Below are positions 1 to 40,340 of a stretch of 40,340 bases of DNA, one piece after another. How positions within the stretch are numbered: the stretch's first letter is position 1; each line of letters begins with the position of its first letter. The DNA is from a virus (taxonomy: Duplodnaviria; Heunggongvirae; Uroviricota; Caudoviricetes): the IMG/VR virus record IMGVR_UViG_2872185964_000009; one strand, 5' to 3'. A program made the translations under genes and the position numbers. Under the pieces are notes generated by a model that was not told where the DNA came from, ran no database searches, and worked only from the letters and a program-made list of their open reading frames with translations.

Positions 1-294
1 GTGGCGCACGTCTTCGGTGAACGCACTCTGGCCACACTGGAGCGTCTTCTGAGCCTGCTGTCGGCCTTTGAGGTCGTGGTATGGATGACGGATGGCTGGC
101 CGCTGTATGAATCACGCCTGAAGGGAAAGCTGCACGTTATCAGCAAGCGTTACACTCAGCGCATTGAGCGACATAATCTGAATCTGAGACAACATCTGGC
201 AAGGCTGGGACGGAAGTCACTGTCGTTCTCAAAATCGGTGGAGCTGCATGACAAGGTCATCGGGCATTATCTGAACATAAAACACTATCAGTAA
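1..294 (+). CDS. insB: IS1 InsB, C-terminal part (5' end outside window)
   Basis: 97-aa ORF about 85-90 percent identical to the InsB ORFs of the complete IS1 copies in this window. Confidence 0.85.
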
Positions 295-309
295 GTTGGA
301 GTCATTACC
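1..309 (+). mobile_element. IS1, partial (window starts inside the element; right end ...GTAAGTTGGAGTCATTACC at 309)
   Basis: Terminal sequence matches the IS1 end seen in the other copies; InsB-like ORF 1..294 is a divergent isoform compared with the other copies. Confidence 0.9.
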
Positions 310-699
310 TAAATTCCTGGCGGAAGTGCGTCAGCACACCTGGTCATCCGGTACCAACGGTGTGGTGGCTGCAACGTTCTCACTGCGTCTGAAAGGCAAA
401 CCGGTGTCCTTTGTGGTACCGCTGGCGTTTGTGAAAAATCTGGATAAGACACTTACCGTGAATACCGGTGCGCTGCTGACAATGTCAGTCAGTGCCAACG
501 GGGAATGCCGCCGTATAAATACGCCTGGAAGAAGGATGGTCAGCCGGTTGACGGGCAGACGACAGACACCTTCAGTAAGCCAGGTGCGCAGTCCGCTGAT
601 GCGGGGAAATATACCTGCGTGGTGACCGATTCGGCAGAGAAAGCACAGAGTGTGACGTCTGTTGAATGCACCGTGACAGTGAGCGCAGCTGCCGGATAA
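310..699 (+). pseudogene. Lambdoid major tail protein (gpV-like) 3' fragment with C-terminal Ig-like domain; 5' end removed by IS1, split over two frames near 500
   Basis: Ig-like C-terminus (..KYTCVVTDSAEKAQSVTSVECTVTVSAAAG) directly upstream of the G/G-T pair, as in lambda V; assignment by position and domain flavour only. Confidence 0.45.
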
Positions 700-713
700 G
701 GGGATGGGTCATC

Positions 714-1088
714 ATGAAAAAGGATCTGAAAACGCTGGCGCTGGCCAGACTGTCAGGGTTTCGTCATAAAACGGTGAAGGTGCCGGAATGGGGGAATGTC
801 AGCGTGGTGCTGCGGGAGCCTTCGGCAGAGGCCTGGTATCTGTGGCAGGAAGTGCTCAATGGTGATGGAGAGGATGACGATACCCTGTCGGTGGTGGCGA
901 AAACCCGCCGTAACCTGGAAGCGGATGTGACGCTGTTCTGCGATGTCCTGTGTGATACGGACCTGCAGCGGGTGTTCACTCCGGACGACCGTGAGCAGGT
1001 GCTGGCCGTCTATGGTCCGGTACATGCCCGGTTGCTGCGTCAGGCACTGGAACTGATCGCTGATGCAGAGTCGGCCAGAAAAAAGTAG
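714..1088 (+). CDS. Tail assembly chaperone (lambda gpG-like)
   Basis: ATG at 714 with AAGGGGA RBS; 124 aa; sits between major tail and tape measure genes; ends at a slippery heptamer followed by an open -1 frame. Confidence 0.7.
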   Translation: MKKDLKTLALARLSGFRHKTVKVPEWGNVSVVLREPSAEAWYLWQEVLNGDGEDDDTLSVVAKTRRNLEADVTLFCDVLCDTDLQRVFTPDDREQVLAVYGPVHARLLRQALELIADAESARKK

Positions 1089-1393
1089 CCCGCCCGGAAA
1101 TTCGCTTTCTGATGCGACTTGCGCTCCGTCTGGGGCGCACCTTATCCGAACTGCGCCACAGCCTGAGTGCGAGCGAGGCGATGATGTGGATGGAGTTCGA
1201 CAGGATATCCCCGCTGGGTGATGAGCGCGGGGATATCCGTAATGCACAGATCGTGAAAGCGGTTTTCGGGGCACAGGGGATGAATGTTGCACTGAAGGAC
1301 GTCATGCTCTGCTGGGGCGAGGATGAGGATAAGCCGGAGGTGGATCCGTTTGCGGCGCTGGAAGACGCGCTGAGCTTTGCAGCACAGTCATGA
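714..1393 (+). CDS. Tail assembly protein G-T fusion produced by -1 ribosomal frameshift (T-specific part 1085..1393)
   Basis: Frame 2 is open from the slippery site through 1393 (VARPEIRFLMRLALRLGR..AAQS); canonical lambdoid G/GT arrangement. Confidence 0.6.
1079..1085 (+). other. Programmed -1 frameshift slippery heptamer A_AAA_AAG at the 3' end of G
   Basis: Codons aga-aaa-aag-tag in G frame; X_XXY_YYZ heptamer immediately before the G stop; -1 frame continues into T. Confidence 0.6.
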
Positions 1394-37756: not shown

Positions 37757-37951
37757 GTAAGAAAGTGGCAGGCTCATATGACGGACCTCTGTAATGCGGT
37801 ATCCAACCCGCGAATATCAGCGTGATTCACCGTCGGATTTACTGCTACGTCGCCCTCAGGGAATTAAACCTAAAAAGAAAATCGTCAAAATTAGAGATTC
37901 CGGTTTGACACGGAAAGTCATATCAGCGTCAACGGAGCACCGTATTGACGC

Positions 37952-39543
37952 TTATTTATTGGTGAGTGCTACGTTCCATGGCAGGAGTTCGTCAACACGG
38001 TTGGAAGGCCATTCCGGCAGTACGCTCAGGATATAGCGCAGATACGCTTCCGGATCGATACCGTTCAGTCGGCAGGTGCCGATCAGCCCGTACAGTAGCG
38101 CACCACGCTCTCCACCGTGATCGCTGCCGAAGAACATAAAGTTTTTCTTTCCGAGACAGACTGCACGAAGCGCTCTTTCCGCGGCATTATTATCCGCCTC
38201 AGCCAGACCATCATCACTGAAGTTGCACAACGCAACCCAGTGCTTCCTGATATACCGGAACGCATCTCTCAGACGGCATTTTTTCGATAACGTGTGTTCT
38301 TTCTCCTGCATCAGCTTATACAGGGAAGTCAGTAGCGGTTTACTCTGCATTTGCCTGACCGCCAGGCGTTCAGACACCGGCAACCCGCGTATTTCGTGCT
38401 CGATGGCGTACAGCTCACCGATTAGTTTCAGGGCTTCTTCCGCTGTCGCGCTTTTGGTACTGATATATACATCGTGGACTTTGCGCCGCGCATGAGCCCA
38501 GCATCCTGCTTCCGTCAACGCGCCGCCTTCTCGTTCGGCACTGAACAGCCGATCGTAACCATTAAACGCATCTGCCTGCAGGATACCCCGGAAGGGACTA
38601 AGGTGCTGCTCCGGATGTTTACCCTGATGGTCCGGTGAGTAGGCGAACCAGACCGCCGGAGGCTCTGGCGAACCGGCATTCCTGTCATCCCGGACATACG
38701 TCCAGATATATCCTGTTTTCGCCTTCTTCCTGCCCGGTGCCAGCACTTTTACTGGTGTGTCATCAGTGTGAACTTTGCGGCTGTTCATCACATAACGGTA
38801 CAGAGCATCATTCAGCGGCGTCATTAACTGGCAGCACGCGTCAACCCAGTTGGAGAGTAATGCACGGCTCAGTTCGACACCCTGACGGGCAAAAATTTCA
38901 CTCTGACGATACAGTGGCAGGTGTTCGCAGTATTTTCCCGTTAACACGCGGGCAAGTAACCCCGGGCCCGCGATACCACGCTCTATCGGACGGGATGGTG
39001 CCGGTGCTTCAACGATGCAGTCACATTTTGTACAGGCTTTTTTTACCCGTTCTGTGCGGATCACTTTCAGAGCGCTGCTCACCAGTTCCAGTTGTTCTGC
39101 GCTGACTTCCCCCAGATAATCCAGCTCACCGCCACACTCCGGGCAACAGCTTTCTTCTGGCTCCAGGCGATTTATTTCGCGGGCAGATGCTCCGGTAACG
39201 GGCGACGATGACGAGACTGTCGCAACTGGCGGGGAACCTGCGGATCGTCTTCCCGCCCACTGTAACGATCACTGTCCTGTTCGCGTTGTTTCAGCAGGGT
39301 CTCAGCCTGTTCAACTTCACGACGCAGTTTTTCAGAACGGGTACCGAACAGCATCCGGCGCAGTTTTTCTATCTGAGCCCGCAGATGTTCTATTTCCCGT
39401 TCATCTTCTTCGATCTTTTCTTCGGCGCGGGCCAGTGCAGAGCGCAGGAAGGCCTCCGTCTCTTCAACCAGACTCAGTTGCTGGTCTTTCTGACGGAGCT
39501 GGCATTCCAGTTCTGCAATGCGAATGAGGTATTTTTGATTCAT
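37952..39543 (-). pseudogene. IS66-family TnpC (orf3), one frameshift near 39170 (loss of one A in an A-run)
   Basis: N-terminal coiled-coil ORF 39172..39543, then ..EINRLEPEESCCPECGGELDYLGEVSAEQLELVSSALKVIRT.. continues in the adjacent frame into ORF 37952..39082. Confidence 0.8.
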
Positions 39544-39573
39544 GGCCGTTTTTATAATCCGGCCATGACATTT

Positions 39574-39924
39574 TTACAACATTGTCAGTGCGTTAAGGCG
39601 GGATGTTTTTGGCTGACGCCAGTCCAGCTTATCGAGGAGCATTGCCAGTTGCGAGCGGGTAATGGATACCTTGCCGTCACGCACAGCAGGCCAGATAAAC
39701 TGGCCTTCCTCCAGGCGTCTGGTGAACAGGCACAGACCATCAGCATCAGCCCACAGGATTTTAATCATGTCACCCCGTCGGCCACGGAAGATGAACAGGT
39801 GACCGGAGAAGGGATTATCATTCAGCACATGCTGTACCTGTTCACCCAGCCCGTTGAAAGACTTACGCATATCGGTTATCCCAGCAACGAGCCAGATGCG
39901 GGTGCCTGACGGGTGTGAGATCAT
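39574..39924 (-). CDS. IS66-family TnpB (orf2)
   Basis: MISHPSGTRIWLVAGITDMRKSFNGLGEQVQHVLNDNPFSGHLFIFRGRRGDMIKILWADADGLCLFTRRLEEGQFIWP.. intact. Confidence 0.85.
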   Translation of the reverse strand: MISHPSGTRIWLVAGITDMRKSFNGLGEQVQHVLNDNPFSGHLFIFRGRRGDMIKILWADADGLCLFTRRLEEGQFIWPAVRDGKVSITRSQLAMLLDKLDWRQPKTSRLNALTML

Positions 39925-40340
39925 CGTCCCCTCCCGGTCAGTTCACGGATCAACACTGTGAGCAGCTCTGGTGAAGGATTTTCCAGCGTCATGTTACCGT
40001 GACGGAACTCCACCTTGCAGGAGCTGGCACTAACTGTAGTCTGAGTAGATAAAGACGGAGTAAGAGCAGCCACCGGTTCTTTCGGCTCATCCGGCGTTAT
40101 CTCCACAGGTAATAATTCAACGCCAGTGTCAGAAGAGGTTGTTACCGGAAGACGCCGCGATATGCGCCCTTCGTTCTGCCAGAGCCTGAGCCATTTGAAC
40201 AGCAGGTTATCATTGATATCGTGTTCCCGGGCAATACGGGCAACAGAGGCTCCTGGTTGTGAAGCCAGTTTAACCATTTGAAGTTTAAACTCATTTGAAA
40301 ATGATCTGCGGGGTTCTGCAGATAATGCTTTCTGTTCCAT
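39921..40340 (-). CDS. IS66-family orf1 (TnpA)
   Basis: 139-aa ORF; its ATG is the last codon position of the window. Confidence 0.8.
   Translation of the reverse strand: MEQKALSAEPRRSFSNEFKLQMVKLASQPGASVARIAREHDINDNLLFKWLRLWQNEGRISRRLPVTTSSDTGVELLPVEITPDEPKEPVAALTPSLSTQTTVSASSCKVEFRHGNMTLENPSPELLTVLIRELTGRGR

Follow-up and report, generated by a model that had tools for sequence, protein, structure and literature searches.

One-base deletions in G and C runs of a 40.3 kb Shigella boydii prophage and btsSR region are almost certainly consensus errors of one assembly and not gene decay

The window analyzed here, a stretch of 40.3 kb taken at its full length, belongs to the Shigella boydii chromosome CP026872.1 (GCA_002950295.1). 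It carries the tail region of a prophage (positions 1-15995 and 16768-19775, on both sides of an IS1 copy), the genes btsS and btsR, a WGR-domain gene remnant, metG (minus strand) and apbC (plus strand) at 29138-32412, and several IS elements. Some of these genes are really damaged. The genuine lesions are insertions of IS1, IS66, IS600/IS3 and IS110 elements and, in the tape-measure gene, a single deletion between two near-repeats (5700-5760, plus strand), which changes the frame and is also present in CP049281 and CP026797. The prophage is defective, with IS1 inserted in both the major tail gene and the fibre gene and IS66 in the tape-measure gene, and these interruptions are common to the sister assemblies. 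The same IS1 and IS66 insertions are found in CP000036 (the Sanger-sequenced strain Sb227), CP049281, CP049285, CP055124 and several CP026xxx records. The truly disrupted genes are those interrupted by IS elements and the tape-measure gene, which is hit by both the IS66 insertion and the repeat-mediated deletion.

The sister loci were found through the intact window proteins T, MetG and a hexapeptide acetyltransferase, and the sister assemblies come from different strains about 0.03-0.1% substitutions apart from the window. Two EIEC-like E. coli genomes, FDAARGOS_944 and FDAARGOS_943, were dropped as reference for the tail genes since their prophage is merely 76-82% identical; their btsSR genes show 99.5-99.7% identity to the window. 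Compared with its near-identical sisters the window contains 42 one-base deletions in 40.3 kb, or about one per kb, and at all 42 sites the run is longer in the sisters, except for G6 contractions in some CP026xxx records. The per-site comparison with close relatives suggested by the original prediction found full-length runs in Sb227, CP049281, CP049285 and CP055124, and TMP, M, L, K, I, J, Lom, TAP, BtsS and BtsR are intact in the sister assemblies. Against CP049281, the left 11.4 kb of the window differ by 20 one-base deletions and 9 substitutions. A few private G/C-run contractions also occur in other assemblies of the CP026xxx series, often at identical G6 runs and with no phylogenetic pattern for these across the series, while none was found in the compared assemblies that are not PacBio-only. 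Given the distance between the strains, any one of the 42 sites may be a private real mutation.

In the prophage, 28 sites lie in 1-15995 and four in 16768-19775, more than the roughly 20 breaks estimated before (all runs are given on the plus strand, as sister length to window length). From the left, G5 became G4 in the major tail gene remnant (500-503). The IS66 element inside the tape-measure gene lost a base from two C4 runs, one in tnpC (2298-2300, where restoration extends the frame from 443 aa to 535 aa, stop to stop) and one in an accessory ORF (3655-3657), and the tape-measure gene itself is shortened at 6091-6093 (G4 to G3) and 7000-7003 (G5 to G4). The minor tail genes M and L show C3 to C2 (7276-7277) and G4 to G3 (7798-7800), respectively. 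Gene K is contracted from G5 to G4 at 8381-8384 and 8473-8476, from G6 to G5 at 8582-8586 (also in the PacBio assembly CP026797) and from G4 to G3 at 8640-8642 as well as at 8992-8994, in its C-terminus and the overlap with I, where the break predicted near 8998 indeed reads GGG against GGGG in the relatives. Gene I has two G5 to G4 losses (9248-9251 and 9572-9575) and the non-coding I/J interval one from G4 to G3 (9645-9647). Within gene J we found G4 to G3 at 10059-10061, 10196-10198, 11251-11253 and 11892-11894, G5 to G4 at 10719-10722 and 11784-11787, G6 to G5 at 10794-10798 (also in CP026797) and C5 to C4 at 12934-12937. The gene lom is affected at 13480-13482 and 13569-13571 (both G4 to G3) and at 13858-13862 (G6 to G5, also in CP026814), followed by a G4 to G3 loss in the non-coding interval between lom and the tail fibre gene (14040-14042). 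The tail fibre gene itself is shortened directly 5' of the IS1 insertion (15896-15898, G4 to G3) and in its distal part at 16989-16991 and 17829-17831 (G4 to G3) and 17122-17125 (G5 to G4), and the tail fibre assembly gene, intact with 190 aa in the sisters, at 18372-18374 (C4 to C3).

Two IS1 copies lost one C from a C4 run, at 16660-16662 in insA of the copy 15996-16767 and at 25491-25493 in insB of the copy 25115-25883. The original prediction was right about both: the first copy reads CACCACCCGTCAG at 16655-16667 where four other copies have CACCACCCCGTCAG, and the second reads CGTATCCCACTG at 25486-25497 where four others have CGTATCCCCACTG. Programmed frameshifting between insA and insB depends on a conserved slippery site that is expected in all copies and in the relatives; the intact copies possess the native pair of 91-aa and 125-aa ORFs, and this explanation was rejected because both losses are extra and copy-specific. 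Upstream of btsS a non-coding run went from G4 to G3 (20635-20637). The breaks proposed for btsS and btsR were also confirmed, with G5 instead of G6 at 21359-21363, a break that is found identically (104+457 aa) in the PacBio assemblies CP026866 and CP026834, and GGG instead of GGGG at 22931-22933. A further break in the C-terminus of btsS (22664-22665, G3 to G2) had been overlooked. The remaining sites are located in the WGR-domain gene remnant adjoining metG (28771-28776, G7 to G6), in the interval between the IS1 at 35266 and the IS110-family element (35899-35902, G5 to G4), directly upstream of the ATG of the IS110-family transposase at 36532 (36505-36507, C4 to C3) and in the minus-strand IS66 tnpC gene (39181-39183, G4 to G3), which is split here into 376+123 aa and has 530 aa in the sisters. 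In this last gene the missing base had been assigned to an A-run near 39170; it is instead a G in cgcGGGcag.

All 42 events are one-base deletions inside G or C runs (34 G and 8 C), for which the log10 probability under uniform placement is about -50. No one-base insertion relative to the sisters was seen in the window, none of its 399 A/T runs of at least 4 was changed, including the 48 of length 6-7, and 40 of its 180 G/C runs of at least 4 were shortened (Fisher P = 2e-22). The loss climbs monotonically with the true length of the G/C run, from 0/3285 for length 2 to 2/608 for length 3 (about 0.3%), 24/152 for length 4 (16%), 11/23 for length 5 (about 50%) and 5/5 for lengths 6-7 (100%). 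G runs appear to be hit more often than C runs (27% vs 12%), but this is not significant when run length and region are controlled (P = 0.28). Thus, the homopolymer bias described before holds as far as single-base losses in runs are concerned, yet it is not a property of homopolymers in general, being confined to deletions in G/C runs.

When the missing bases were put back, M, L, K, I, J, Lom, the fibre protein, TAP, IS66 TnpC, BtsS and BtsR were rebuilt, each repaired gene giving one full-length match. Seven of the eight repaired proteins that were looked up are exact matches to proteins on 37 to more than 1000 other contigs, namely M (at least 1000 contigs), I (994), L (641), Lom (211), BtsS (136), K (56) and BtsR (37), and the matches include S. 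boydii-specific alleles from NCBI and Logan assemblies. Only for repaired J (1157 aa) did the collection contain no identical protein, probably due to private substitutions. The raw fragments of BtsS (434 aa), BtsR (172 aa) and the fibre protein (229 aa), on the other hand, each occur on CP026872.1 only among the 153 billion gene positions of the collection.

The distribution of the breaks is uneven, and metG and apbC are frame-intact as previously noted, which had been taken to fit relaxed selection on a prophage. However, these two genes are intact because they contain merely seven G/C runs, all of length 4, for which the probability of no error is about 0.27, and the tail region has 90 G/C runs of at least 4 compared with these seven, so that the unevenness follows mostly from the number of such runs per region. 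A difference between the halves persists when run length is controlled, as the per-run loss left and right of position 19775 (1-19775 vs the rest) is 21% vs 8% for length 4 and 71% vs 11% for length 5 (likelihood-ratio P = 0.0025). We infer that local differences in consensus quality cause this excess, and this is the sole explanation we offer. In a unique housekeeping region at 3.95 Mb of the same assembly, ispF is broken twice and ispD once by G/C-run deletions, the called products being 56 aa and 186+50 aa instead of 159 and 236 aa. True breakage of ispD and ispF is not viable. There, 10 of 28 runs of length 4 and 4 of 5 runs of length 5 lost a base, and relaxed selection on the prophage was rejected as the reason for the pattern since errors are no less dense in this housekeeping DNA. 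Runs outside genes (9645, 14040 and 20635) are shortened as well.

Genuine pseudogenisation would mean that real slippage deletions accumulated because both the defective prophage and btsSR were under relaxed selection in a host-restricted Shigella lineage rich in IS elements. This would agree with the many real pseudogenes in Shigella genomes, with a prophage that is truly defective through IS insertions common to the sisters, with the somewhat higher per-run loss in the prophage half and with intact metG and apbC. We nevertheless consider it very improbable. None of the 42 deletions is present in those sisters that share the defective prophage and the IS insertions and are not PacBio-only, the truncated products are limited to CP026872.1, insertions and A/T-run events are lacking, and in the left 11.4 kb the deletions outnumber the substitutions to the nearest sister. 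Moreover, ispD and ispF, both essential, have breaks of this type elsewhere in the assembly, and metG and apbC would be expected to escape by chance. That a minority of the 42, for example a part of the excess in the prophage half, are genuine slippage mutations in a decaying prophage is very unlikely, too. A strain mutator with G-run-specific deletion, or a mixed stock whose minority alleles entered the consensus, might be imagined for old culture-collection stocks and in view of the residual left/right heterogeneity, but it appears extremely remote: contraction of every run of at least 6 and about half of the runs of 5 would inactivate most genes across the genome including essential ones, mismatch-repair mutators also affect A/T runs and yield insertions, and other members of the series show contractions at identical G6 runs without phylogenetic pattern. 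Phase-variable contingency loci are a small number of surface or restriction genes that usually have a run of at least 7 in the promoter or at the 5' end, and isolates show both lengths; they were rejected for 42 sites mostly in runs of 4-5 across phage, IS, regulatory and housekeeping genes.

The breaks are therefore almost certainly consensus errors of one assembly, CP026872.1, as judged from comparisons at the sequence level, and the error reading already considered in the original prediction is borne out by deletions confined to this assembly bar a few G6 runs, by the dose-response to run length and by the broken ispD and ispF. In a systematic manner, the assembly called G and C homopolymers one base too short and left A/T runs unaffected, a pattern that corresponds to the residual error profile reported where genomes with a mid to high GC content were assembled from PacBio RS II data only. 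The strain's btsS, btsR, M, L, K, I, J, lom and tail-fibre assembly genes are most likely intact, and so most likely are the IS66 and IS1 reading frames in the organism. Homopolymer errors of 454, Ion Torrent or ONT sequencing, which had been named as possible sources, would also be single-base and restricted to homopolymers. On these platforms, length errors affect long runs irrespective of the base and go in both directions; in the window, all 399 A/T runs of at least 4, among them 48 of length 6-7, are correct and only deletions occur. They are highly unlikely to be responsible and were probably the wrong candidates, as G/C-only deletion is the published pattern of PacBio RS II, with G and C lost from homopolymers in the consensus of both E. 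coli and GC-rich genomes (PMC8574707), and the flanking accessions are credited to a PacBio data set. PMC10132075 and PMC7819885 trace CP026774 to CP026878 back to the PacBio data published by Kim et al. in 2018, the source also given for CP026832; CP026872 falls within this range but is not itself among the accessions named. Its PacBio-only status is thus deduced from the accession range and not from the text of the record. The series around CP026872 is a PacBio-only set of historical Shigella strains. A literature search by accession (CP026872, GCA_002950295 and the sister accessions) found no mention.

This is no biological discovery, but it has practical weight for the use of public genomes. 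Later publications, for example PMC7084086, PMC7819885 and PMC10132075, refer to the data set of Kim et al. 2018. With an error roughly every kb, much of the gene content of the "complete genome" CP026872.1 would look frameshifted, the essential ispD and ispF in the second region examined among it, and any Shigella pseudogene census, metabolic reconstruction or gene-loss inference using it would overcount decay; other PacBio-only records of the series would do so to a lesser degree. Frameshift-based pseudogene calls in the window should not be trusted, and the strain should not be counted among those lacking the pyruvate-sensing two-component system btsSR. A diagnostic that works without reads is to combine the per-run contraction rate by base and length with a search for exact matches to the repaired proteins and an inspection of essential genes.

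Real Shigella pseudogenes resemble these sites in that one-base indels split genes in an IS-rich chromosome, and real IS disruption is present in the window, too. In contrast, real pseudogenes pass by descent to the other members of a clade and leave essential genes untouched, whereas the 42 deletions are found in one assembly, bar a few G6 runs in the PacBio series, and the same errors affect ispD and ispF. Gene-fragmenting indel errors in long-read assemblies were reportedly described by Watson and Warr in 2019. The closest match is the ARAMIS study, in which single-base G/C homopolymer deletions likewise fragmented predicted proteins and affected a fraction of the runs, in E. coli and GC-rich genomes and despite consensus polishing (PMC8574707). 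It differs in density, with 37 indels per whole E. coli genome compared with about one per kb here, in showing no simple length dependence where the window shows a clear one, and in its platform (PacBio RS II), which for the window is the probable one. Work on such errors in long-read assemblies, for example that on the Kastor tool (PMC12007338), describes indels that inflate pseudogene counts, as they do here, and that can be detected against close relatives, and the window is a textbook instance of this.

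The 434-aa BtsS fragment encoded at 21365–22669 occurs in only one contig on record, CP026872.1 (NCBI GCA_002950295.1), a 4.71-Mb chromosome, and the locus fetched from it is identical to the window. The proteins of the window and their relatives show the organism to be Shigella boydii. The frame breaks along this stretch, for which the original prediction had offered pseudogenisation or indel sequencing error, are almost certainly caused by assembly error and are not a biological feature. The underlying observation was confirmed with a single wrong detail: the break in IS66 had been placed in an A-run near 39170 and is actually located in the G run at 39181–39183. 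Both altered IS1 copies were found exactly as described, the copy at 15996 reading CACCACCCGTCAG at 16655–16667 where four IS1 copies have CACCACCCCGTCAG, and the copy at 25115 reading CGTATCCCACTG at 25486–25497 where four copies have CGTATCCCCACTG. Elsewhere along their length the five IS1 copies are 97–100% identical to each other. The IS1 fragment at 1–310 shares only about 90% identity with these five complete copies and therefore represents a second IS1 isoform.

Alignment of 20538–24284 to the closest E. coli records (99.5–99.7% identity) gave four one-base gaps, and all four are deletions on the window side within a G run: at 20635 in non-coding sequence, at 21359 (G6 to G5) and 22664 (G3 to G2) in btsS, and at 22931 (G4 to G3) in btsR. 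Compared with three intact E. coli prophages (95–97% identity), the tail region carries about 30 one-base deletions, essentially all within G runs, and no insertions outside one divergent block. Using three intact window proteins (tail assembly protein T, MetG and the hexapeptide acetyltransferase) the corresponding loci were fetched from about 20 other complete Shigella assemblies. Several of them share the window's IS arrangement: the major tail gene and the tail fibre gene each contain an IS1, the tape-measure gene contains an IS66, and IS1 copies flank btsSR-yehS on both sides. In the gene calls of these sisters the tape-measure protein, M (113 aa), L (232), K (247), I (193 or 226), J (1157), Lom (199), the fibre assembly protein (190), BtsS (561), BtsR (239) and IS66 TnpC (530–533) are all full length. 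Aligned base by base over its entire length with the nearest sisters CP049281.1, CP026762, CP026797 and CP026814, the window has 42 private deletions of one base (34 G and 8 C) and, alignment-edge effects aside, no private one-base insertions. Against CP049281.1 the first 11.4 kb differ by only 9 substitutions but by 20 one-base deletions.

Taking the length in the sisters as the true run length, the share of G/C runs that are shortened by one base in the window rises from 0 of 3285 (0%) at length 2 and 2 of 608 (0.3%) at length 3 to 24 of 152 (16%) at length 4, 11 of 23 (48%) at length 5, 4 of 4 (100%) at length 6 and 1 of 1 (100%) at length 7. None of the 399 A/T runs of at least 4 in the window is shortened, including 48 runs of 6–7 (Fisher P = 2e-22 for G/C versus A/T contraction). 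G/C runs of at least 3 make up 6.4% of the window and hold all 42 events, which under uniform placement has a log10 probability of about −50. Once one base was inserted per site, every affected gene matched its reference protein in one piece over the full length. In an exact-sequence look-up of the repaired proteins, identical proteins were found in other contigs for L (641), K (56), I (994), Lom (211), M (at least 1000), BtsS (136) and BtsR (37); the same look-up returned no exact match for repaired J. Repaired K and BtsS are the proteins of S. boydii CDC 3083-94, and the repaired BtsR allele is on record for S. boydii only (NCBI and Logan assemblies). The unrepaired 172-aa BtsR fragment is found in one contig, that of the CP026872.1 assembly.

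Relaxed selection on a prophage had been suggested from the contrast between the frame-intact metG and apbC and the broken tail region. For metG and apbC this contrast is explained by run content: among their G/C runs only seven reach length 4 and none exceeds it, which gives 1.1 expected errors and a probability of 0.27 that no error occurs. In the tail region, which has 90 runs of at least 4, 27 deletions were observed where 20.9 are expected, and the left half of the window keeps a residual excess when run length is controlled (likelihood-ratio P = 0.0025). The prophage is not alone in this excess, because elsewhere in the assembly a unique housekeeping region, CP026872.1:3947837–3968202, to which the defective InsB product (121 aa) of the IS1 copy at 25115 pointed, has per-run rates above those of the window (10/28 at length 4 and 4/5 at length 5). 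Loss rates at length 4 are 21% in 1–19775, 8% in 19776–40340 and 36% in 1–9200 of the housekeeping region; as a guess, such regional differences might reflect coverage that varies locally or reads that map ambiguously to duplicated tail modules.

When 9.2 kb of this second region were compared with an annotated E. coli reference (98.9% identity), 15 one-base deletions were found, of which 14 lie within or adjoin G/C runs. Two are located in ispF (C4 to C3 and C5 to C4) and one in ispD (G4 to G3), with further ones in cysN, iap, cas1e and cas6e, and the called products are an IspF of 56 aa (normally 159) and an IspD split into 186 and 50 aa (normally 236). The MEP pathway is the sole isoprenoid route in E. 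coli and Shigella, which makes ispD and ispF essential, and frameshifts in them can therefore not be real. The change in cas1e at 7819 of this region (T5 to T4 against the E. coli reference) is the only event in an A/T run in either region and might reflect a true difference at a CRISPR-Cas locus undergoing decay.

The IS insertions of the window (five copies and a fragment of IS1, two IS66, IS600/IS3-type and IS110-type) also occur in the sisters and are real. In the tape-measure gene, at about 5700–5760, the segment between two near-repeats (about 55 nt; CTGCAGGAAAAAATCGCAG...CCGGGCTGGA) is gone and the junction changes the frame. This deletion is common to the window, CP049281 and CP026797, the segment being kept in Sb227, and it is a genuine lesion separate from the G/C-run errors. 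Because these insertions and the tape-measure deletion are real, the prophage is truly defective, but not via the frameshifts listed in the original prediction. On the minus strand at 14626–15363, opposite the tail fibre gene, the public gene calls of the CP026872.1 assembly and of several sisters include an antisense ORF of 245 aa, which looks like a shadow ORF; the tail fibre gene itself is absent from the calls of CP026872.1. Between yehE and yehD (33050) the copy number of the 10-bp unit ATTTACGGTA varies among assemblies, with one more copy than in the window and CP026762 in CP049281, CP026814 and CP026797 and two more in CP026866. This is a small copy-number polymorphism, and TRF reported no array within the window. 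In CP049281.1 some 155 kb separate the counterpart of the left part of the window (1.53 Mb) from that of the right part (1.37 Mb), and the K/I/J segment has a match in both places. This suggests either that tail modules are duplicated or that IS1 has mediated a rearrangement relative to the genome of the window.

With CP049281 as reference, other CP026xxx records carry 0–3 private deletions of one base for every 20 kb, without exception within G/C runs of 4–7, and none were found in Sb227 (a Sanger assembly), CP049285 and CP055124. CP026866 and CP026834 share the contraction of the G6 run at 21359, CP026797 those at 8582 and 10794, and CP026814 that at 13858. This distribution is independent of relatedness, as a systematic error would predict. 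The platforms originally proposed, 454, Ion Torrent or nanopore, do not fit, as their errors would hit long A/T runs too and all long A/T runs of the window are correct. The value of the result is as a warning about the CP026872.1 record. CP026832 is named as PacBio sequence in PMC10132075, which cites Kim et al., and PMC7819885 gives that paper as the source of CP026774 to CP026878; CP026872 falls within this range, which points to PacBio as its probable platform. Systematic homopolymer indel errors are reported for PacBio RS II assemblies, and in E. coli and GC-rich genomes most of them remove a G or C (PMC8574707).
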